IMG/VR virus record: IMGVR_UViG_3300037294_000405
Location: 1 to 64,000 of that record
Direction: 5' to 3' (one strand)
DNA from: a virus
DNA: 64,000 nucleotides
This document shows, piece after piece, positions 12,481 through 50,573 of this stretch. The notes below the pieces were generated by a model. That model worked only from the letters and a program-made list of their open reading frames with translations. It did not search any database and was not told the DNA's origin. The position numbers and the translations under genes are program-made. How positions within the stretch are numbered: position 1 is the stretch's first letter; the number at the start of each line of letters is the position of its first letter.

Positions 12481-12526
12481 CATAAGTCTTTTTTAAAATA
12501 TCATGATATTTATAATAAAACAAAAT

Positions 12527-13312
12527 ATGAAATACCAATATAATTTAACAGCTTTTGAAAAAATAAATGAAGATTCAGCCTATTTCTTAGGTTTACTATA
12601 TGCTGATGGTAATCTAAGTGATAAAGGTCGTATTACGTTAAACCAATCAATTAAAGATATTGATATTGTAGAAAAATTTAAAACATTTTTAGGGACAAAT
12701 AAACCAATTAGAGTAGTTGAAGTAACTAATTCAGTCTCATTTAGTTTTCAAAATAAAATGATAACAAAACAATTAATAAATCTTGGGTTGGAGCCTAGAA
12801 AATCATTAACACTTAAATTTCCAATGTTCATAAAAAAAATTTATTTAAAAGATTTTATTCGAGGATATTTTGATGGTGATGGTTGTGTTTCTTTAACTAA
12901 AAACAAAACAACTTCTAACCTTAGAATACATTTAGTTGGAACTTATGATATGTTATTTAATATAAAAAAATATTTAACAGATGTATTATCAATTAATGAT
13001 AGAAAAATAAATCAAATAACGATTGGTAAAAATACTTTTCAATTAGAAATAACAAAAAAACTTGATGTTCAAAACATTAAAGATTTATTGTATAATAATT
13101 CAAAATATTTTTTATCTCGTAAAAGAAATATTTTTTTTACAAATATTAATAATAACAATGAAGATTGTTCATTAAGTTCGAAATATAAAAATATTTGTTA
13201 TAGAGAAAAAAGAAAAAGATGGAGAGCGACTTATTATCTTAATAATATTAGAAAAGAAAAAAGCTTCAAACATGAAATTGAAGCTTTTAATTTTCTTGAA
13301 TCTTTAGACTAA
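12527..13312 (+). CDS. Free-standing LAGLIDADG homing endonuclease with C-terminal AP2-like domain
   Basis: AYFLGLLYADG and FIRGYFDGDG; C-terminal SKYKNICYREKRKRWRA; start chosen at 12527 because an ATATTTAT motif lies at 12506-12513. Confidence 0.88.
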   Translation: MKYQYNLTAFEKINEDSAYFLGLLYADGNLSDKGRITLNQSIKDIDIVEKFKTFLGTNKPIRVVEVTNSVSFSFQNKMITKQLINLGLEPRKSLTLKFPMFIKKIYLKDFIRGYFDGDGCVSLTKNKTTSNLRIHLVGTYDMLFNIKKYLTDVLSINDRKINQITIGKNTFQLEITKKLDVQNIKDLLYNNSKYFLSRKRNIFFTNINNNNEDCSLSSKYKNICYREKRKRWRATYYLNNIRKEKSFKHEIEAFNFLESLD

Positions 13313-20008: not shown

Positions 20009-20821
20009 TTAACTTTGTGAATCGTATGTTATCTGTCTATCTTTTGGGAAATAGTATTCTTTTTTTGCCGTTGATAACCACCACTTAGCCTCAATTGGGT
20101 CTAAGGTTTCTTTGTACTCTGAGAATAAAGAACCTGGTCTTTGATTTACGTGTTTGTAACCAAATCTAGGTACAACCATTACTCTAACATCCTTGAATGT
20201 CATTCGTAATAAAAACTCATAGATAAACGTTAATTTAATACTAGGTTTAAACCCACCGAATTCTTCATAAGTAGATTTTTTTATAACCATCCCATCAATA
20301 TTAAAGTTTTGATAAGTTAATAAAGCGTTATTATCTAAAATACCTAACTCGTCTGAAAAACTATTGGCCCAGACTGCTTCGTTGGTAAAACCAATAAAGT
20401 TTCCTACTGAATCTACATCGATTACAATTGGTAAGAATAAATCAACGTTGGTGTGTGCGTCTCTGTATTCGACAACATTTTTGAACCAAATTTTAGCGTA
20501 TTCATCATCGAATTCTAAAATAGAGAACCATTCTGTTTTGGAAACGGAAACACCATAATTAACTTGCGAGGCAAAATCGGTTGCACCATCATTTTCAGCG
20601 ATGATTACTAATTTTTTATTTTCACCAAAATCAAAAGATTTGATATATTTTGCTGTTTCACTTCCTTTAGGTACAACAATAATTAATTCGTCTGGTTGCA
20701 CTGTTTGGTCTGTAACGCTTTGGATTGCGTTTTGAAACATAGGTTTTGTTACTTCGTTCAACTCATGAACGGGTAAGATAACACTTATCCCATTTAATTC
20801 TTTATTTTTCATTTTTTTCAT
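20009..20821 (-). CDS. Glycosyltransferase family 2
   Basis: ISVILPVH, AIQSVTDQT, DELIIV, LEFDDE; start at ATG 20821 or 20812. Confidence 0.85.
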   Translation of the reverse strand: MKKMKNKELNGISVILPVHELNEVTKPMFQNAIQSVTDQTVQPDELIIVVPKGSETAKYIKSFDFGENKKLVIIAENDGATDFASQVNYGVSVSKTEWFSILEFDDEYAKIWFKNVVEYRDAHTNVDLFLPIVIDVDSVGNFIGFTNEAVWANSFSDELGILDNNALLTYQNFNIDGMVIKKSTYEEFGGFKPSIKLTFIYEFLLRMTFKDVRVMVVPRFGYKHVNQRPGSLFSEYKETLDPIEAKWWLSTAKKEYYFPKDRQITYDSQS

Positions 20822-21524
20822 TTTTATTATTTTTATTATTTTTACTAGCATTTTTATTATTAAAATAACTACATTTTGGAATATTTATTTTAACCATTAT
20901 TTCACCATTTCTTCTAACCCAAACAAAACCTTTTGCTGTTAAATTTGTTTTATCTAACGTTTGTTGTATTTGTCTATCACTTATTTTAAAATTATTTTTG
21001 ACTTCCACCACAGAGTCCCATATTTTAATCAAATTACCAAATCTATCATATTGTAATATCTGGATAGTTCTTGGGTCATGATATACTTTAACATATTTTT
21101 CATATGACCAAATAAATCCTTTAGAGCTACTTAAAACACCCTTACAAACTTTTAATATTGCTGAATTATCAAAACCTAAAATTCTATTTATTTCAGCTGC
21201 CGTTTCCCATTCTTTTATGAATTTACCTTTTTTATCAAATTGGTAAATTTTGTTGAATTTTGTTTGACCACCAGTACCACCCTCCGATATATTATAACCG
21301 AATGTTGTTGCCAATAATTCGGTTATCCAATACTTCTCACGGTTATTTAACTCTTTCCTAGTAGTACATGTTTCAAGTATTTCTTTTTTAAAATTTTCCC
21401 GACCATTTTTATTTACAGCCAACTTAAGTATTTTACCAGAACCTAAATATTCTGGATTATTCTTTTCATCTTTACCAACATAAATTTTTCCGTTTAATAA
21501 ATTTGTCGTTTTATATATAATCAT
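20802..21524 (-). CDS. Free-standing GIY-YIG homing endonuclease (Seg-like) with NUMOD1-like repeats
   Basis: IIYKTTNLLNGKIYVGK, YLGSG, GYNISEGGTGG, two IxQxDxxGxxIKxW repeats; ATG 21524 follows an ATATTTAT motif at 21539-21546. Confidence 0.9.
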   Translation of the reverse strand: MIIYKTTNLLNGKIYVGKDEKNNPEYLGSGKILKLAVNKNGRENFKKEILETCTTRKELNNREKYWITELLATTFGYNISEGGTGGQTKFNKIYQFDKKGKFIKEWETAAEINRILGFDNSAILKVCKGVLSSSKGFIWSYEKYVKVYHDPRTIQILQYDRFGNLIKIWDSVVEVKNNFKISDRQIQQTLDKTNLTAKGFVWVRRNGEIMVKINIPKCSYFNNKNASKNNKNNKNEKNEK

Positions 21525-21578
21525 ATAATTCTTTTTATATAAATATCTAATAACTGGCAAAAAGACTGAAAGCTTGAT

Positions 21579-42214: not shown

Positions 42215-45200
42215 ATGAGTCAAACAAAAACAAAGGTAAGTAATGAACTTATCGAGTCTTTCCTTCAAGGTACCGACCCACAACAATACATAGTAGCGAT
42301 AGAAGCTAATTATGATAAACCAATGGTTACGCTTGTAATCAACGACAAAGATGCCACCCCAACCAAAAGGTTAGAGGACCACCCTTATAAACCATTTCTA
42401 TGGTTTAAGGATAGTGTGATTGATAAATTATACGGTGGTAAGCGTATGAAAGTAATAGAAGCATGTAGAAAATACGATATTAAAATTACATTACTTAGAA
42501 CTAATGATGACGAAGGGAATATCCCATTACGTATTGAAAACGGTTACAAGTACATGGCTATATGTAAAAAATCATACAATAACCTAGTAAATTTTTTTAA
42601 AGAAGGTGGTGTTGACGTGTTTAGTAAAGACAAAAATAGAGAATTTGTTATATTTAGTCCTACTGAACAATTTCTTATTCAAACAGGTAAGCGTTTATTT
42701 AAAGGAATGGATGATTATGACGATGTGCATAGATTTCAATTTGACTTAGAGACTGAGGGGTTATACGCTAGCAAAAACGCAATATTTCAAATTGGGGTTA
42801 GAGATAATCGAGGTTTGGAAGAAGTAATGGAAGTTAAAGGAACTAACGGCTACGAAAAACGTGATTCAGAAAGAGAAACTATCCAGAAATTCTTTAGAGT
42901 AATCGATATGGTTAAACCAGATATAATTACTGGTTATAATTCTGAAAATTTTGACTGGCCTTTCTTATTTGAACGTGCTGAACGTTTATCTGTTCCAATC
43001 ACTGAATTAGCTATCACCCTTAATAGGATTTCTAAGATTAAACGTAAACCATCAACACTTAAGTTAGGTGGTGAAACAGAAGCTTACAACCAGACACATA
43101 TGTATGGTTATAATATCATTGATATTTCACATGCTGTACGTAGAGCGATGGCAATTAATACTGAAATTAAATCATGGGGTTTAAAGTACATCACACAATA
43201 TTCCGAAATAGCTAAACCTAATCGTGTTTATGTACCTGGGGATAAAATTAATTCAACTTGGGCTGATAAGTTAAACGATTACGCTTTCAACGATGAAAAT
43301 GGTGATTGGTTTAAAATTACAGACAAGAACCCATTAAAAGAGAATTATATTAAAACTACTGGTCAATTTATTGTACAACGATACTTATGTGATGACCTTT
43401 GGGAAACTGAACAAATCGATAACATATTCAACCAAGCTAGTTTCCTTATTGCAAAGATGTTACCAACAACACTCCAACGTTCATCAACAATGGGTACTGC
43501 TGGTCAATGGAAACTTATCATGGCTGCATGGTCTTATGAAAATGGTTTAGCTATTCCAGAAACACAAACAAAAAGAGAATTTACTGGTGGTCTTTCTCGT
43601 CTACTAGAAGTAGGATACGCTAGAAATGTGGTAAAGCTGGATTATGCAGCTCTTTACCCTAAAACACAGCTTACACACAACATTTTTCCAGACTTAGATA
43701 TTAGTGGTGTAATGGAGGGAATCTTGACCTATGTGGTTGATACACGTGATAAGTTTAAATTCTTAAACGGTAAAGAAAAGAAAATCTACAAAAATTTAGA
43801 AACAAAACTTAAAGAGGAAAAAACTTTATTAGACAAAGAAAAAGAAACACTTAAAAAAGAAATACAAGAACATAAAGCTTTAGCTAACTTGTACGATAAA
43901 AAACAATTACCGCTTAAAATTCTTGGCAACTCATGGTTTGGTTCATACGGTGCACCTCATATTTTTAATTGGGGTGATACTGATTCAGCAGAAGAAACAA
44001 CATGTCGTGGTCGTCAGTATTTACGTTTGATGGTTCGACACTTTACTGAAACACATGGGTTTCGTGCACTAGTTGGTGATACCGATGGATTTAACTTTTC
44101 ATTTCCAGACAACGTTAATGACATAAAATATATAGCCAAGGGTAGCCATTGGAAAACAACGGAGGATGCTGGAAAAGAATTATCTGGGCTAGATGCTGTG
44201 TTGGCTGAGTTTAACGAAAATTATATGGAAGGTCGTATGGGGTTAGATATTGACGATATTTGTAATTCTACAATTAATTTTGCTCGTAAAAACTACGCTA
44301 ACGATATTGGTGGAAAGATTAAACTAGTAGGTAACTCGGTAAAATCTAAAAGAATGTCTGTTTACATAGAAGATTTCTTGGGTAAATCTATTCGTATGTT
44401 GTTAGACGGTGATGGTCATTCATTCATTAATTATTATTATGAATATGTCGATAGAATTTATAATTACCAAATACCTTTGGTTAAAATAGCTTCTAAAGCT
44501 AAAGTTAAGTTATCAATGACTGATTACAAGAAAAAAGCTACGATGAAAAATAAAGCTGGTAACCCATTACCTAAACAAGCACACATGGAACTAGCCATGA
44601 GAGAAGCTTTAGATATTACTTTAGGTGATGTTTTATATTACATAAATATTGGTACCTCTAAATCACAAGGTGACTTAAAAACAGTTGAGATTAATAAAAT
44701 GACTAAGAAACAAGCTGATGCTTGGAAATTGGAAAATCCAGATATGTCATTACCAGTTGTTAGGAAAGAGGTTCAATTAAACAGTAAATTAATAGACCCA
44801 GAGACTGTTGAGCGTGATTTTGAACTGATTAAAGAACTCGAAATGTTGAAAAAAGCAGTTGCTGCTTTGGAAGAAGGTGATGGGAATATTGAAGCACTAA
44901 AACTTAGAATGGAAAGCATTGATTCTCAACTATTCACCGATGAGTATAATGTTGCTCGTTACTTAGACGCATTTAATAAAAAAGTTAAACCATTATTAGT
45001 TTGTTTTGACCCAGAAATACGTGATAACATTCTTTTAGATATTGTTAAGATAAAAGATAAAGAAACTAAAAAAGTAACTGAAAAGTTAAAAGAAAGACAA
45101 ATATTCACTAGAAATGAATGTGAGTTGGTTTCTGGTATGCCTTTTAAGGAAGCTGACCAAGATTCTTACCAAGACCTAATGCGAATGGAAGATAAAGAAA

Positions 45201-46024
45201 TAAAGTTTTGGGATAAAGTTGATAAGTTACCAAATAACATGGAAGAAACTGAATGGGAAAAACTTAGAGTTGATTACCACGAACGTATGCGTATCGCTAA
45301 AATAGAAGGTCTTATTCGTGAAAAAGAAACGATAGAAGATATAATTAAACATTTAGAACTTAACGATTTAAAAAAAGCAATGCAAGGTGTGTTGCCTGTA
45401 GATATATTAGTTTTTTGCGATATTTCAGATGATGATTCGTTTTCACTTATTTCTAGAAAATGGCATGAACCATTATGTTATTTTAACGATATATTTAAGT
45501 ATGAAAAACAAGCAGTAGAACGAGATAACTACTACAAAATAGTTGGTAAAGAAAATGAGGATAATCGGTATGAAGAATGGTTAGATTATTTAGCCGAGTG
45601 TAAAGTAATGACTGGGGAAACAATAAGTTACGAATTTGAAACCATTGTTGACACTAAAAATATGAGTTTTGTGCTTGATAAGGTAAAAGAAAATTCATCC
45701 AACGTGGTTGTTGAACAAATAGTAGAGGTTAAAAAAAAGCGTGTTATGTCTGAAGGTGATGATGAAGATGATGAAATTGAAGAGGATGAAGATGGTAATT
45801 TAGTTAGAAATGATGAAGATTTAAAATTAGATGATGAATTTGATGACACGTATGGTGAGGTACCAGAAGGGTATGTAGTCGATGATACACCGTACTATGT
45901 TGATGCTGACGAACTGGCTAGTGTAAACGGAATGGATGAAGAAGCTGAATTACAACAACCAGAACCACCTAAACCAGTGGTAGAGTTTAAAAAAGAAGAA
46001 CCAGAAGATGATTGGGGTTTCTAG
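42215..46024 (+). CDS. Family B DNA polymerase
   Basis: Exo FDLETEG, GYNSENFD; Pol DYAALYP, KILGNSWFG, GDTDG, KNYA. Confidence 0.95.
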   Translation: MSQTKTKVSNELIESFLQGTDPQQYIVAIEANYDKPMVTLVINDKDATPTKRLEDHPYKPFLWFKDSVIDKLYGGKRMKVIEACRKYDIKITLLRTNDDEGNIPLRIENGYKYMAICKKSYNNLVNFFKEGGVDVFSKDKNREFVIFSPTEQFLIQTGKRLFKGMDDYDDVHRFQFDLETEGLYASKNAIFQIGVRDNRGLEEVMEVKGTNGYEKRDSERETIQKFFRVIDMVKPDIITGYNSENFDWPFLFERAERLSVPITELAITLNRISKIKRKPSTLKLGGETEAYNQTHMYGYNIIDISHAVRRAMAINTEIKSWGLKYITQYSEIAKPNRVYVPGDKINSTWADKLNDYAFNDENGDWFKITDKNPLKENYIKTTGQFIVQRYLCDDLWETEQIDNIFNQASFLIAKMLPTTLQRSSTMGTAGQWKLIMAAWSYENGLAIPETQTKREFTGGLSRLLEVGYARNVVKLDYAALYPKTQLTHNIFPDLDISGVMEGILTYVVDTRDKFKFLNGKEKKIYKNLETKLKEEKTLLDKEKETLKKEIQEHKALANLYDKKQLPLKILGNSWFGSYGAPHIFNWGDTDSAEETTCRGRQYLRLMVRHFTETHGFRALVGDTDGFNFSFPDNVNDIKYIAKGSHWKTTEDAGKELSGLDAVLAEFNENYMEGRMGLDIDDICNSTINFARKNYANDIGGKIKLVGNSVKSKRMSVYIEDFLGKSIRMLLDGDGHSFINYYYEYVDRIYNYQIPLVKIASKAKVKLSMTDYKKKATMKNKAGNPLPKQAHMELAMREALDITLGDVLYYINIGTSKSQGDLKTVEINKMTKKQADAWKLENPDMSLPVVRKEVQLNSKLIDPETVERDFELIKELEMLKKAVAALEEGDGNIEALKLRMESIDSQLFTDEYNVARYLDAFNKKVKPLLVCFDPEIRDNILLDIVKIKDKETKKVTEKLKERQIFTRNECELVSGMPFKEADQDSYQDLMRMEDKEIKFWDKVDKLPNNMEETEWEKLRVDYHERMRIAKIEGLIREKETIEDIIKHLELNDLKKAMQGVLPVDILVFCDISDDDSFSLISRKWHEPLCYFNDIFKYEKQAVERDNYYKIVGKENEDNRYEEWLDYLAECKVMTGETISYEFETIVDTKNMSFVLDKVKENSSNVVVEQIVEVKKKRVMSEGDDEDDEIEEDEDGNLVRNDEDLKLDDEFDDTYGEVPEGYVVDDTPYYVDADELASVNGMDEEAELQQPEPPKPVVEFKKEEPEDDWGF

Positions 46025-46031
46025 AAATAAT

Positions 46032-46055
46032 AAAGGGGCTTACGCCCCTTTTTTT
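46032..46055. terminator. Bidirectional intrinsic terminator
   Basis: AAAGGGGC-TTAC-GCCCCTTTTTTT. Confidence 0.88.
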
Positions 46056-46058
46056 ATT

Positions 46059-46136
46059 TTAATAAACCCAGAACCCTAGTGGTCTGTATTTCATCGATGT
46101 ATTTAAGTCTGTTGCTTCTTTAGCACCTCTTTCTAA
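46059..46136 (-). pseudogene. Orphaned former 3' end of the neck protein gene (LERGAKEATDLNTSMKYRPLGFWVY*)
   Basis: Near-copy of 47077-47154 (LERGALEAGYLNTSMKYRPLGFWVY*). Confidence 0.92.
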
Positions 46137-46185
46137 TTTTTTTTTTATCTTTTTAAATTTATCACATATTTATTATTAAAAAGAT

Positions 46186-47097
46186 ATGTGTATTAAAAGA
46201 ACAAACAGTAAAGGGACAACAGAGGGTTTTATAATTAAATCTAAAAACATTCACGGAGATAAATTTGATTATTCTAGAGTTATTTATATTAAAAGTAAAG
46301 AAAAAGTGAAAATTATTTGTTTATATCATGGGGAGTTTGAACAAACACCAGATAACCATATAAATAATAAGCAAGGTTGTCCACTATGTGCTAATAATGT
46401 TAAACTTTCCACTAAAGAATTTATAAAAAAATGTAACCAAATACATAATTTTAGATACGAATATTTAGTTACAATATATATAAATGATAAGACTAAAGTG
46501 TTAATAACTTGTAACTTACACGGTGTATTTGAACAAAAGGCTGGTAATCATTTTAGGGGGGATGGTTGTCCAAAATGTAGTGGTAATTATATGGATACAA
46601 ATTATTTTATTAACAAGGTTAAATTAATTCATGGGGGTAAGTATGATTATTCGTTAACTAATTATATATCACAACAAAAAAAAATAAAAATAATTTGTCC
46701 AAAACACGGTATGTTTAAACAAAACCCAAATAATCATATTAATGGTAATGGTTGCCCTATTTGTAAAGAATCTAAGGGTGAGCGTTTTATTAGTGAATTT
46801 CTAATAAATAATAATATTAATTTTATCCCACAATATAGGTTTAGTGATTGTAGGGATATATTACCATTACCTTTTGACTTTTATTTACCAGATTATAATA
46901 CATGTATCGAATTTAATGGGAGACAACATTATATACCAATAAAAATTTGGGGTGGGGATAATACTTTAAAAGAAATTAAGAAAAGAGATAAGATAAAAAT
47001 GGAATATTGTACCACTAACAATATTCCATTAATAAGTATTAAATATAATCAAAACATATTATCTAAATTGAATTATTTAATAAACCCAAAAACCTAA
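46186..47097 (+). CDS. Free-standing endonuclease: three Zn-binding repeats (DUF723-like) plus Vsr/DUF559-like PD-(D/E)XK domain
   Basis: IHGxKYDYS...IICPxHGxFxQ...GCPxC x3; LPFDFYLPDYNTCIEFNGRQHY...RDKIK. Confidence 0.85.
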   Translation: MCIKRTNSKGTTEGFIIKSKNIHGDKFDYSRVIYIKSKEKVKIICLYHGEFEQTPDNHINNKQGCPLCANNVKLSTKEFIKKCNQIHNFRYEYLVTIYINDKTKVLITCNLHGVFEQKAGNHFRGDGCPKCSGNYMDTNYFINKVKLIHGGKYDYSLTNYISQQKKIKIICPKHGMFKQNPNNHINGNGCPICKESKGERFISEFLINNNINFIPQYRFSDCRDILPLPFDFYLPDYNTCIEFNGRQHYIPIKIWGGDNTLKEIKKRDKIKMEYCTTNNIPLISIKYNQNILSKLNYLINPKT

Positions 47098-48216
47098 AGG
47101 TCTGTATTTCATCGATGTATTTAAGTATCCAGCCTCAAGAGCTCCACGTTCTAGTTGTGTTGTGGATGAAAGTCTAAGTAGTCTAGCCTCCAATCTTTCT
47201 AACACAGCTTTTTTCTCTTCATTACCTTCGGAGATAAGTGTTTCATAATCCATAGTTCTTTCTGCTTCTGGAGGTCCAACAACCCCACCAAACTTACCTC
47301 TAGTTCTACCTAAAGCTCTTTTAGCTTCTGCAATAAATAATTGACGAATAAGTGTTTTTGTTGGTTCGTTAAATTCAGCGTAATCTAATCTGGCTAAAGG
47401 GACTTGGTTTGGCATTTTAATTATATCTGGGTTATCCTCTTTACATTTATCTAAATTTTCTGGAGTCGTGTCATAATAATGATACCAAACTTGGCAACCT
47501 GTCATATTTATTGAGCTACCTACCCCACCCATTCCTTGTCCAAATGATAATTTAGAGCCAGGAGTACTCATTAAATGCAATAATTTAGTACCATTTGGAC
47601 CAGCAGTAACTTTGTGAACTAATTCACTTCTAACGATACGATTTTTTAAGTTCATATCGGCAGCCGTTAAAAGAATATCAAAAGCTGGTGCGATATAATA
47701 ACCTTGTCTACCGTTAGGACCACCTGTACCAACGCCACCACCTGTTTGTGCAAACCCACCACCAAAACCGTAATCAATACCACCATAGTTAGCCAATAAT
47801 GCTTGACTAGTTGGAGGAGGGGTAACCCATAATACTTCATTTATTTCACGACCAGCTGGAATAACATAAACTTGTCTACCAGCCTCAATTTCAACGTAGT
47901 CTTTTTTTAACTCCCACGGACCATTAGACTGCAAACCAACTTGTTTTGAGTACGCATAAGTATATTGTGTCATGAAATCAAAATTTCTAACACTCAAAGC
48001 AAATGCCATGTCTGTCGTATCTAAATTTTGCCCTAATAAAGATTGCCATTGGTGTTCAACTAACCATTCTTGGACATATTGAGCATAGTCCTCTATTGAA
48101 ATTTCTAATAGGGTACAAAGTTGCTCATCTTCCAATTCAATTTTACGCACTGGTGCGCCCAATGAATGTCTGAATTGTCGAAATAATTTTTCTTTTTCTT
48201 CTATAGTTACTGACAT
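47077..48216 (-). CDS. Neck protein (T4 gp13-like)
   Basis: LGAPVRKIELEDEQL; C-terminal LGRTRGKF...LISEGNEE. Confidence 0.8.
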   Translation of the reverse strand: MSVTIEEKEKLFRQFRHSLGAPVRKIELEDEQLCTLLEISIEDYAQYVQEWLVEHQWQSLLGQNLDTTDMAFALSVRNFDFMTQYTYAYSKQVGLQSNGPWELKKDYVEIEAGRQVYVIPAGREINEVLWVTPPPTSQALLANYGGIDYGFGGGFAQTGGGVGTGGPNGRQGYYIAPAFDILLTAADMNLKNRIVRSELVHKVTAGPNGTKLLHLMSTPGSKLSFGQGMGGVGSSINMTGCQVWYHYYDTTPENLDKCKEDNPDIIKMPNQVPLARLDYAEFNEPTKTLIRQLFIAEAKRALGRTRGKFGGVVGPPEAERTMDYETLISEGNEEKKAVLERLEARLLRLSSTTQLERGALEAGYLNTSMKYRPLGFWVY

Positions 48217-48255
48217 AATAATTTTGTTTTATTATAAATATCAATAAGTTTTAAT

Positions 48256-48510
48256 TTAAGCTAAAAACTTCTTAGTTATCTCAACAGCTTCACTAATTGA
48301 TTGGAAGGAGACATTAGGTACCAATAATTGTCTATCTATTTTTATTACTGGGACTTCTTCAGCTTTTGAGACTTTAGAAATTTCATCCCATTCTTTAATA
48401 TTTTCTTCTAAGTTTATGTTTACGTCACGATATTTAATCCCTTGTGAATCGTAAATCTCTTTTAATTCCTTACAATAAGGGCATTCTGGGAAACTATAAA
48501 TTGTTATCAT
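48256..48510 (-). CDS. Glutaredoxin (NrdH-like)
   Basis: IYSFPECPYC, VPVIKI. Confidence 0.85.
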   Translation of the reverse strand: MITIYSFPECPYCKELKEIYDSQGIKYRDVNINLEENIKEWDEISKVSKAEEVPVIKIDRQLLVPNVSFQSISEAVEITKKFLA

Positions 48511-48511
48511 A

Positions 48512-48723
48512 TTACATTGTTATTAAGTCATCTACCAATAAAGCAGTTATTTCATCTTCTGTTAATTTTTTATCACCCATAATTATATTGATGATGTCTT
48601 TTTTACTATTTAACATAGACCACATTCTACTCGAAATAGTATCGTCAAATAATTGATAGTAAACATTGACATCATTTTTTTGACCAATACGGAATGCTCT
48701 ATCTTCTGCTTGTTCATTGTTCC
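48512..48723 (-). pseudogene. Second, diverged copy of the helicase C-terminal ~70 codons
   Basis: NNEQAEDRAFRIGQKNDVNVYYQLFDDTIS... duplicates 48726-48944; begins immediately after the helicase stop. Confidence 0.88.
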
Positions 48724-48725
48724 AA

Positions 48726-50573
48726 TTATAAATCACCATTCAATATTTTTTGGATTAATAAATCTGTTTCATTTTCTTTGGTTATATTTTCAACACCTAA
48801 TATTATGTTAATTATTTCTTGTTTTTGTTTTAAAGTTTCCCACATCCTTATTGATATAGTGTCGTCAAATAATTGATAATAAACATTAACATCATTCTTT
48901 TGTCCAATTCTATACGCTCTATCTTCAGCTTGTTCGTTATTACCAGTAACCCAATCAAATGAGTTAAAAATAACCACAGTTGCTTCAGTAAGTGTGATAC
49001 CAACACCAGCAGATTTTATATTACCAACAAAAACTTTTACTTTATCATTGTTCTGAAACACATCAACTGATTTTTGTTTTTGTAATGTTGTCATTGGGCC
49101 ATTGTGTTTAACCGCCAATTTACCAAAGTGATTAGATATCATTTCTAATTCATCAGTGAAATTAGTGAATACTATCACTTTACGACCCATTTCAATAGCG
49201 TTTTCTACCATTTCAATAGTATAAGGGATAGCTTCTTGTGCGATAAATTGTCTAAGTAGGATAAGTTCAACTAAATCTTTTTGTAGGTTATCTGTTTTCT
49301 TACCCTCTAATTTTCTTTTTTGTAAGTATTCTTCCCAAAGTAATTCATATTGTTTAAGACCTTTTTTATCTAATATATGGTGCATAGGTGTCACTACTTT
49401 ATCTGGCATATCCAATACTTCAGTTTTTAAACGTCTAATAATAGTGTTTTTGGTTTTATTGGCTAATTCTTCTAAATTACTAGCACCATCAGTAAGCCAT
49501 ATTTGTTTTCTTTGACCATTCTTAAGGGTTCTAAAGAACTTTCTACCGTCACAATACCTTACAGCATAATGTTTCCAATTATCTGCGATAGGGGACTTAA
49601 TAATCTTTAAAAGATTAAAGAAATCCATAGGTCTATTTGCGACAGGTGTACCAGTTAACAACCAAACTCTCTCTATTTTTTCTTTAGCACAAAGTTCCAC
49701 CATTATTTTACCTCTAATACTTTCATTATTTTTTAAATAATGAGCCTCATCAATAATACATAAATCATAATTAGCGTTTATCAATTCTCTATTTAAAATT
49801 TCTTCTGGTTCACCTTCTTTTGGTTTTTTACCAGAAGATAAAGTATGGAAATTTTTAAGGATATCAAAATTAATTATCGTAAATTTAGCGTCACTCCATT
49901 TTTTACCGTCAATAATTGTTGTGTCATCACAAAAAACATTAATTTCACGCTCCCAATTAATTTTTGTTGATGATGGGCAAACAACTAATATTTTTTTAGC
50001 ACCGCTTTCTAAAGCGGCAACAATTGACTGAATAGATTTACCTAAACCCATGTCATCTGCTAGTATACAACCTTTCCTAGATAACAAAAACTTTATACCA
50101 TCTTCTTGATGTTGGTAAAGTTTTTTGTTATCTAAAGATAAAACTTCATTGTATTTTGAAAAATCAACGTTTACATTTATCGATTCAAAATATGGGTCAT
50201 CAGTTAGTTGTGTTTTAGGCAACCAATACATTTTAGACTCTTTTTGGTTTTGTTTTAGTTTACCGTATATATGAAATGTTTTATCTGTATCAGCAAGGAT
50301 GAATTCAATTAAAACTTTTTCTGGTGTAAAAGATAACTCATCTATTTTTTTTAGTTCTTCACCTAGATAAGGTGTTATACCAACAACCCTATTAATGAAG
50401 AGAGGTTCCCTTTCATGGTTTTCAGTAATGTATTTTGATTGGTTTTCAGTTAAAGCCAATTTATTATTTTTCAAAAAAGCTATTTTTAGTTTTTTGATGT
50501 ATGGATTTATCCCTTCATATGCCTCAAGCAATGAAATAGCTGAATGTCCTCGTATATCGTCTAAATTTATCAA
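48726..50573 (-). CDS. SNF2-family (HARP/SMARCAL1-like) helicase
   Basis: LADDMGLGKS, IIDEAH, LTGTP, IRRLK, GVGITLT, QAEDRAYRIGQ. Confidence 0.93.
   Translation of the reverse strand: MINLDDIRGHSAISLLEAYEGINPYIKKLKIAFLKNNKLALTENQSKYITENHEREPLFINRVVGITPYLGEELKKIDELSFTPEKVLIEFILADTDKTFHIYGKLKQNQKESKMYWLPKTQLTDDPYFESINVNVDFSKYNEVLSLDNKKLYQHQEDGIKFLLSRKGCILADDMGLGKSIQSIVAALESGAKKILVVCPSSTKINWEREINVFCDDTTIIDGKKWSDAKFTIINFDILKNFHTLSSGKKPKEGEPEEILNRELINANYDLCIIDEAHYLKNNESIRGKIMVELCAKEKIERVWLLTGTPVANRPMDFFNLLKIIKSPIADNWKHYAVRYCDGRKFFRTLKNGQRKQIWLTDGASNLEELANKTKNTIIRRLKTEVLDMPDKVVTPMHHILDKKGLKQYELLWEEYLQKRKLEGKKTDNLQKDLVELILLRQFIAQEAIPYTIEMVENAIEMGRKVIVFTNFTDELEMISNHFGKLAVKHNGPMTTLQKQKSVDVFQNNDKVKVFVGNIKSAGVGITLTEATVVIFNSFDWVTGNNEQAEDRAYRIGQKNDVNVYYQLFDDTISIRMWETLKQKQEIINIILGVENITKENETDLLIQKILNGDL

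Follow-up and report, generated by a model that had tools for sequence, protein, structure and literature searches.

The closest described precedents for the locus reported here are the WHO elements of Torulaspora yeasts, which exchange the 3' end of FBA1 each time they integrate and thereby make FBA1 a chimera (Coughlan et al. 2020, eLife, PMC7282813). The old 3' end stays behind in the form of a fragment and provides a homology arm (PMC7282813), and a 2026 preprint (10.64898/2026.08.13.744650) treats WHO elements as a rare third homing category, naming no phage counterpart. In fungal mitochondria, partial C-terminal duplications of atp6 and cob lie beside free-standing endonuclease open reading frames (ORFs) (PMC6279837). 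On the phage side, Vsr-like nucleases have been proposed as a family of homing endonucleases with free-standing genes in 'fractured' phage genes (Dassa et al. 2009, PMC2677866), and zinc-finger repeats of the CapR/DUF723/DUF4379 type are DNA-binding modules found in free-standing homing endonuclease genes (HEGs) of the Vibrio phage ICP1 (Barth et al. 2023, PMC10448857). Neither the ICP1 paper (PMC10448857) nor a review of T4 mobile elements (PMC2988022) speaks of a duplicated gene end or of a replacement for one; the stem 'duplicat' is absent from the latter and occurs twice in the former, for repeats inside HEG genes and for the screening of HEG coding sequences for duplications. Our literature searches found no phage description of a terminus-replacing homing layout. 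The locus in question occupies positions 46059 to 48216 of IMG/VR record IMGVR_UViG_3300037294_000405, within a window of 64,000 nucleotides (nt) that forms the first 64 kb of this 155-kb uncultured-virus record. CheckV estimates the record to be 44% complete, which at this length implies a jumbo phage. At this locus a gene for a predicted nuclease adjoins a gp13-like neck gene, the 3' end of which is present in two versions.

The arrangement is very probably that of a free-standing cassette with a homing-endonuclease gene, about 1,018 bp long, lodged in the conserved neck gene 26 codons before its stop and carrying a foreign replacement for the end that it displaced. In composition it looks like a promoter-like motif and a 303-residue nuclease combined with an opposite-strand replacement of the last 25 neck codons, and because the cassette would bring its own spare gene end, the neck gene stays contiguous without an intron or intein. 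It is read as one open frame across the junction (47077..48216, minus strand, 379 residues), in which the resident body of the neck or head-tail adaptor gene (47155..48216, minus strand) is followed by the working, putatively cassette-borne 3' end of the LEAGY allele type (47077..47154, minus strand). The nuclease is a separate ORF on the opposite strand (46186..47097, plus strand), and the two genes overlap tail to tail by 21 nt (47077..47097). Upstream of the nuclease lies the 5' region of the cassette (46137..46185, plus strand), comprising an A/T-run boundary and the promoter-like motif ATATTTAT at 46166-46173; the inserted block as a whole spans 46137-47154. On its far side the resident 3' end of the neck gene, of the KEATD allele type, is found as an orphan detached from its gene (46059..46136, minus strand, 25 codons and a stop). 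Only 7 nt separate this orphan from a bidirectional intrinsic-terminator hairpin (46032..46051, with an 8-pair stem and T-runs on both strands) between the DNA polymerase gene and the ancestral neck end. The same hairpin also ends the polymerase gene, which encodes 1,269 residues.

The working end (LERGALEAGYLNTSMKYRPLGFWVY) and the orphan end (LERGAKEATDLNTSMKYRPLGFWVY) have 62 of 78 nt and 22 of 25 residues in common. Their differences amount to 12 of 30 nt in codons 1-10, none of 24 in codons 11-18 and 4 of 24 in the last eight codons, where all are synonymous; divergence is concentrated near the junction, yet it is not confined there. An exact 27-nt match occurs at two places only (46081-46107 and 47099-47125), with no such match expected in shuffled sequence. 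The homology of the two ends stops exactly at a Leu codon, upstream of which the orphan continues into an A-run (read as KKK) and the working gene into TTQ. The preliminary description had read this locus as a nuclease gene inserted antisense in the 3' end of the neck gene with a duplicated terminus, and both the anatomy and the relatives described below agree with it. It had likewise opposed a 26-codon orphan end beside the terminator to a functional end overlapping the nuclease by 21 nt, and the coordinates bear this out, the 26 codons being 25 and a stop. The near-identity of the distal part, with its 27-nt match, was recovered, and the junction codons that it quoted (TTA GAA AGA GGT GCT AAA versus CTA GAA CGT GGA GCT CTT) are correct.

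The origin of the two ends can be judged from relatives. A search of IMG/VR with the neck protein gave 189 matches and 80 syntenic loci (given L numbers here), all of which have the gene order glutaredoxin (grx), neck gene and convergent polymerase gene. Seventy-nine of the 80 lack a nuclease gene between neck and polymerase, and in most relatives about 40-100 nt, with a shared terminator, separate the stops of neck and polymerase; in L019, L003 and L045, which carry no nuclease there, the neck stop is immediately followed by the hairpin described above. With the neck end of L019 and L020 the orphan has 75 of 78 nt in common, and its translation is identical to that of L008, L009 and L019. L019 and L020 are also the closest relatives in the flanks (89% for the polymerase C-terminus and 94% for glutaredoxin, at the amino acid level). 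The working end, in contrast, matches L045 and L046, which belong to another lineage, have the LEAGY allele and lack the nuclease, at 72 of 78 nt, against 63 of 78 for L019. The 14 codons before the junction are still L019-like, and in a sliding window over the neck gene the best match is L019 (94%) until the last window, where it becomes L045 (89%). As the orphan is nearest to L019/L020, the body L019-like and the working end nearest to L045/L046, the orphan is the resident end and the working end is foreign; by this sequence comparison, the working end came from outside together with the nuclease gene.

A second occupied genome was found in an independent assembly from another sample (L035, with L083). 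It encodes a 302-residue nuclease homologue of 65% identity in the same antisense position, and it shares the 21-nt overlap, a working end of LEAGY type, a homologous leader and the A-run boundary. The orphan of L035 begins at the same Leu codon as the orphan at 46059-46136 but is of another allele type, NEAEF, and matches the working neck end of the nuclease-free relative L048 at 77 of 78 nt. The neck body of L035 is 96% identical to that of L048 over 1,062 nt, with 87% in the polymerase flank, whereas the L035 orphan and the L035 working end agree at only 54 of 78 nt, the first 12 of which are identical. By sequence, L035 and L048 form a filled/empty pair in which L048 is a near-isogenic empty site, and comparison of the two occupied genomes indicates that the same type of cassette entered two lineages at the same codon, stranding the resident end each time. 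This second case practically excludes a duplication in situ, a target-site duplication and an assembly artefact.

In the phage described here, resident gives way to foreign sequence within the last 10 nt upstream of the junction, and in L035 it does so within the first 12 nt after the junction. In neither genome does a co-conversion tract run into the neck body. The best reading is that the position of the switch marks that of the break and so places the cut close to the junction of Gln with Leu-Glu-Arg-Gly; the predicted cut is likely to fall within about 10-12 nt of this point. To this extent the earlier proposal of a homing endonuclease with a predictable target is supported, the putative recombination boundary being within that distance of the junction that it had named. 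Its idea that the junction-proximal codons were recoded does not hold as stated, since the working end is the natural allele of another lineage (72 of 78 nt to L045/L046). Neither are the Leu, Arg and Gly codons special: Leu and Arg codons starting with C (CTA and CGT) are present in 23-26 of the 79 nuclease-free relatives, and the invaded, orphan allele of L035 has the very same codons. The suggestion that divergence concentrates at the cleavage target survives in part, as the synonymous changes in these three codons are common natural variants while codons 5-10 are specific to the cassette. Codons 5-10, [A/S]-L-E-A-G-Y, are the only stretch to be of the cassette type in the two occupied genomes alike, and any determinant of immunity would therefore likely be this LEAGY patch, 12-30 nt downstream of the junction, rather than the L-E-R-G codons. 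If the replacement end does confer immunity, such a distal patch would fit a modular enzyme with zinc fingers that bind away from the cut.

The predicted nuclease consists of two parts. The N-terminal part (residues 1-194, 46186..46767, plus strand) comprises three zinc-binding treble-clef repeats of about 60 residues, with H...H...CxxC positions that are invariant in each repeat in an alignment of 16 homologues; Pfam recognises DUF4379, a probable treble-clef zinc finger (E=3e-12), and weakly DUF723 (E=1e-3). These repeats are presumed to be the DNA-recognition part. The C-terminal part (residues 195-303 and the stop, 46768..47097, plus strand) is predicted to be the catalytic domain. In the AlphaFold model (mean predicted local distance difference test, pLDDT, 84.5), residues 192-303 align with Vsr (1cw0; Z 10.4, root-mean-square deviation 2.6 Å over 102 residues), with the catalytic domain of I-Bth0305I (3r3p; Z 10.2, 2.7 Å over 90 residues, 20% identity) and with a DUF559-type protein (3hrl; Z 8.7), and Foldseek gives a probability of 1.00 for both 1cw0 and 3r3p. 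The modelled domain is of the Vsr/I-Bth0305I-like PD-(D/E)XK fold and is a predicted nuclease. Residues E199, D231, E242, Q247, H248, D268 and K271 are invariant in this domain across the 16 homologues and include the conserved motif E242-x-N/D-G-x-Q247-H248, accompanied by D231 and D268..K271. The motif E-x-(N/D)-G-x-Q-H appears to resemble the DUF559 pattern. Searches of PDB sequences with phmmer and with a 16-sequence profile (E≤10) returned no chain except a chance match.

The PHROGs families to which the nuclease belongs are labelled endonuclease, homing endonuclease or HNH endonuclease. Pfam finds no HNH family in the protein at E≤0.01, where the only nuclease-like domain is the Vsr-like C-terminus, and no match to T5orf172 or MUG113; the 'HNH' label of PHROG 559 and of several GenBank records appears to be an annotation habit. 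Members called 'HNH endonuclease' in RefSeq and PHROG 559 include NC_019401 GAP32_274 and NC_025447 121Q gp584. The family is present in 1,096 records of cultured or assembled phages, mostly annotated as hypothetical or HNH. The earlier characterisation of the family as poorly characterised thus applies to its biochemistry, while its parts are of known kinds, namely CapR/DUF723/DUF4379-type zinc fingers and a Vsr-like fold.

The cassette also seems to carry its own control elements. ATATTTAT stands 20 nt before the nuclease ATG and is found at most 45 nt upstream of 25 of the 137 ORFs of at least 100 residues in this genome, mostly 18-26 nt before the ATG, where about 1% would be expected. It also precedes the neck gene (48230-48245) and a paralog of the nuclease, that is, structural and nuclease genes alike. 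Its distribution makes it a candidate phage promoter element, and the cassette seems to have a promoter of the phage type. At the other end, a 13-bp hairpin with a T-run on the neck strand (46998..47030, minus strand; folding free energy, dG, -15) lies inside the nuclease coding sequence, at codons MEYC..NNIP, and 47 nt beyond the new stop of the neck gene. The hairpin is also conserved in L035, L084, L086, L088, L092 and L103, in all of which the nuclease gene is convergent with its target gene; 90% of the cells are paired against 38-61% in slid controls, three pairs are changed on both sides, and the covariation score is reached by 2 of 500 shuffles. L088 has a synonymous change at Tyr and, matching it, a change from Asn to Ser. 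Among co-directional members the hairpin is weak or absent in four of five (dG -4.1 or weaker), while L097 reaches -9.9. The hairpin may be a substitute terminator for a neck gene that has been cut off from its old one.

The mechanism that we propose is modelled on the WHO elements (PMC7282813). In a mixed infection the nuclease would cut those neck alleles that lack the cassette, no more than about 10 nt from the junction of Gln with Leu-Glu-Arg-Gly. The break would be repaired from the cassette-bearing genome, with the neck body as the left homology arm and the orphan as the right arm. The recipient would gain the nuclease and the foreign end and would keep its own end as a new orphan, which would be pushed about 1 kb downstream and remain untranslated beside the old terminator. 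The end supplied by the cassette, most likely through the LEAGY patch at codons 5-10, would make the carrier's own gene uncleavable, and the hairpin and T-run in the 3' coding region of the nuclease would probably terminate neck transcripts.

Several observations weigh against this account. Both the nuclease activity and the target site are predictions. The LEAGY allele exists in L045 and L046 without the nuclease, so that the differences between alleles may be plain lineage polymorphism and not selected immunity. The working ends of the two occupied genomes agree at only 58 of 78 nt, and in each genome the working end shares patches with its own orphan (27 nt here and the first 12 nt in L035), which leaves the exact donor sequence and the crossover points uncertain. 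IMG/VR and a metagenome scan contained only two occupied neck sites; the scan, made with the nuclease, yielded 37 relatives and no further occupant of the neck site, and a scan of IMG/VR for the LEAGY allele returned only contigs already known. For homologues in the cultured phages GAP32 and fHe-Yen9-04 the flank-similarity scores are in the null range, with no terminus duplication. The proposed terminator is absent from the convergent member L098 and partly present in the co-directional L097, and its covariation comes from 10 related sequences under coding constraints.

Members of the nuclease family have the same layout at other genes. In L009, L055 and L060, homologues of the nuclease lie between glutaredoxin and neck, convergent on glutaredoxin and overlapping it by 38-49 nt; the glutaredoxin gene has been given a new tail, and a 7-codon orphan end is left before the neck promoter. 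L088 and L092 show the layout at a gene of 446 residues, and duplicates of 39 codons and of 51 residues are present in L086 and L098, respectively. The duplication score of the neck case described here is 114, compared with 27-51 for random placements of the same geometry and two outliers of 64 and 73. Gene starts are affected as well. L019:2880-4010, and also L020, L106 and L165, contain an orphan neck 5' start (MSITIDEKEKLF.., like the N-terminus of the neck protein described here), after which come, in L019, a truncated antisense copy from the same nuclease family, 257 residues long, and a working neck start that belongs to a different allele type. The L019 case is a 5'-end replacement, and it explains why the L019 neck is only 85% identical when its flanks are at 89-94%. 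The paralog of the nuclease in the present genome (129791-130678; L002:1498-2406; 53% identity) has a sigma-factor gene on one side and a membrane-protein gene on the other, all three running in the same direction, and the start of the membrane-protein gene is apparently present twice, flanking the paralog, with a score of 63 that is borderline against the null.

Endonuclease genes of other families lie in the same window, and Pfam assigns 12503-13312 (plus strand) to LAGLIDADG_3 (with AP2) and 20802-21560 (minus strand) to GIY-YIG (with NUMOD1). The LAGLIDADG gene overlaps the stop of a convergent gene of 302 residues by 4 nt, with a possible 9-codon orphan end on its other side (FCSSCGTKA versus FCSQCAKKV, each followed by a stop). 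A crude test found no duplicate terminus at the GIY-YIG gene. As a separate observation, the C-terminal 70 or so residues of an SNF2-type helicase are present twice in tandem (48512-48739 versus 48726-50573, both minus strand). The orphan copy, an ORF of 75 residues, adjoins the start of the glutaredoxin gene, a place that in relatives is taken by the helicase end, and no nuclease gene lies between the two copies. At this position L019, L055 and L060 have two small minus-strand ORFs, one of which, with a CxxC N-terminus, is a candidate endonuclease. The tandem helicase end may be a terminus replacement from which the nuclease was later lost. Taken as a whole, the evidence leans slightly towards terminus-replacing, WHO-like cassettes being a general and recurrent phage class rather than a peculiarity of yeasts. 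The zinc-finger/Vsr-like family shows the layout at five or more genes and at 3' as well as 5' ends, and the unrelated LAGLIDADG and GIY-YIG genes of this genome may share it. The complete unit would be a module of promoter, nuclease, a spare end that confers immunity and a terminator placed within the nuclease coding sequence, and such units would be a main driver of mosaicism at the ends of conserved phage genes.

Other explanations of the neck locus differ mainly in what they make of the duplication. One, which is possible but unlikely, accepts a real homing cassette of the T4 seg/mob type that cuts at a distance; the duplication would be the by-product of one illegitimate repair, inherited since by flanking homology, and the replacement end would have no part in immunity. 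Free-standing T4 endonucleases do cleave away from their insertion site (PMC2988022), and both the nuclease-free LEAGY allele of L045/L046 and the status of the Leu, Arg and Gly codon variants as common natural polymorphisms would suit such an origin. A distant cut, however, would drag in longer donor tracts, whereas the neck bodies are 94% L019-like and 96% L048-like right up to the junction, the switch occurs in both genomes within about 12 nt of the same codon and without co-conversion into the body, and the same tight architecture is seen at several other genes. It is improbable, too, that the locus is an immobile relic of past homing with a nuclease now inactive or kept for another role such as the exclusion of competitors or regulation. 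The rarity of occupation (two sites among about 190 relatives) and the existence of truncated family copies, such as the 257-residue copy of L019, would be expected of a relic; here, though, the ORF is full-length, the three zinc modules and every family-invariant residue of the catalytic domain are intact, the promoter motif is retained, and at 65% identity the copy in L035 is no less intact, implying that the protein is under purifying selection.

Hardly any credence can be given to the two explanations that dispense with homing. Had the neck 3' end been duplicated in situ, in tandem or as the target-site duplication of a transposon, with the nuclease landing between the copies by chance, direct repeats flanking the insert would result, and this is what is seen; but a repeat of 78 nt is far too long for a target-site duplication, the copies differ at 16 of 78 nt, and each is nearer to an outside lineage (75 of 78 for L019, 72 of 78 for L045) than to its partner (62 of 78). 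The L035 copies agree at 54 of 78 nt and its orphan at 77 of 78 with L048. That a metagenome assembly chimera joined two strain variants of the neck 3' end around an unrelated gene is a concern with this contig of an uncultured virus, and is just as implausible: the architecture, the junction codon, the 21-nt overlap and the A-run boundary are repeated in the independent assembly L035/L083, analogous structures occur in many other contigs, and the working gene is a clean open frame. The homing cassette with a replacement gene end remains the preferred reading.

The invaded gene is tentatively assigned to the neck proteins through its ESM Atlas clusters, which are labelled T4 gp13 (score 0.99) and in which 87-98% of members carry PF26809. 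A partial stretch matches phrog_211 (Ad2) at E=4e-7, and hhalign aligns residues 17-52 with residues 18-53 of T4 gp13 at a weak probability of 28%. A Pfam set that lacks PF26809 gave nothing at E≤10, and the AlphaFold model (mean pLDDT 39) is too poor for a fold comparison. In cultured phages, neither megablast with 45000-49000 nor tblastn with the neck protein found a match, so that there is no annotated close relative. The surroundings of the gene vary in other ways. Another duplicated 5' terminus at this gene is seen in L067/L068:4001-4450, where about 300 bp separate the full neck gene from an upstream fragment of 45 residues that resembles neck residues 7-51 (49% identity). The spacer between neck and polymerase contains inserts of 370-450 bp in L008, L016 and L025, which were considered as nuclease remnants or orphan ends and rejected, as they hold a small conserved extra ORF instead. 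This ORF of about 100 residues (MGLKIT..), which is not a nuclease, lies between the neck and polymerase stops in L008:5141-5512, L016, L025 and L026.

If the proposed cassette is as described, the WHO mode of homing would extend to bacteriophages and to an unrelated nuclease. From filled and empty alleles in two lineages, the likely cut can be placed within about 10-12 nt and the likely determinant of immunity confined to a patch of six codons, and with this both that patch and the specificity of an uncharacterised but very widespread family of phage nucleases become directly testable. The layout would explain how the phylogenies of gene ends come to disagree with those of gene bodies in highly conserved phage structural genes. 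It also holds a warning for annotation, in that short orphan gene ends beside nuclease genes may be scars of invasion and that the family is mislabelled as HNH.

The individual parts of the cassette have counterparts in several known systems. The HEGs of ICP1 and the seg and mob genes of T4, which spread by 'intronless homing' (PMC10448857, PMC2988022), are likewise modular, with zinc-finger repeats, adjoin essential phage genes and mark recombination boundaries between related phages, but their nuclease is of the T5orf172, GIY-YIG or HNH type and not Vsr-like. The Vsr-like (EDxHD) homing endonucleases share the catalytic fold, are phage-borne in conserved phage genes and have control elements of their own; they show no match at the sequence level, however, their N-terminal DNA-binding part differs, and they split the host gene by way of split inteins or introns where the present cassette supplies a replacement end. 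In fungal mitochondria the order of host gene, endonuclease ORFs and duplicated C-terminal segment is the same, though in an organelle genome, with other nuclease families and with ORFs that are often degenerate, whereas for the phage locus there are a clean pair of filled and empty sites and another insertion, independent of the first, at the same codon. Synthetic home-and-rescue drives (HomeR, PMC7968924) similarly combine a nuclease that targets an essential gene with a cleavage-resistant replacement carried by the drive; they are CRISPR constructs for insects, and the phage cassette would be natural and protein-guided.

The WHO elements come closest in overall logic. At FBA1, an essential gene, as at the neck gene, an endonuclease gene stands beside its host gene without intron or intein, the 3' end is replaced by an allelic variant borne by the element which turns the host gene into a 5'/3' chimera whose parts disagree in phylogeny, and a fragment on the far side of the endonuclease gene preserves the earlier 3' end. 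The differences lie in the protein, the host and the details of the layout. WHO proteins are derived from LAGLIDADG inteins (HO/VDE-like, with a zinc finger), and no LAGLIDADG domain is present in the phage nuclease, where Pfam finds only DUF4379 and DUF723 and where zinc-finger repeats are joined to a domain of Vsr-like fold; WHO elements reside in the yeast nucleus and this cassette in a bacteriophage. About one third of the gene is replaced in the yeasts as against only 25 codons here, WHO elements form clusters of successive elements of which there is none here, and cleavage and allele specificity, predicted from sequence in the phage, have been demonstrated by experiment for WHO. Peculiar to the phage cassette are the antisense orientation of its nuclease gene, the 21-nt overlap of that gene with the replacement end, and a possible embedded terminator. 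The phage cassette is a functional analogue of the WHO elements, not a member of their family.

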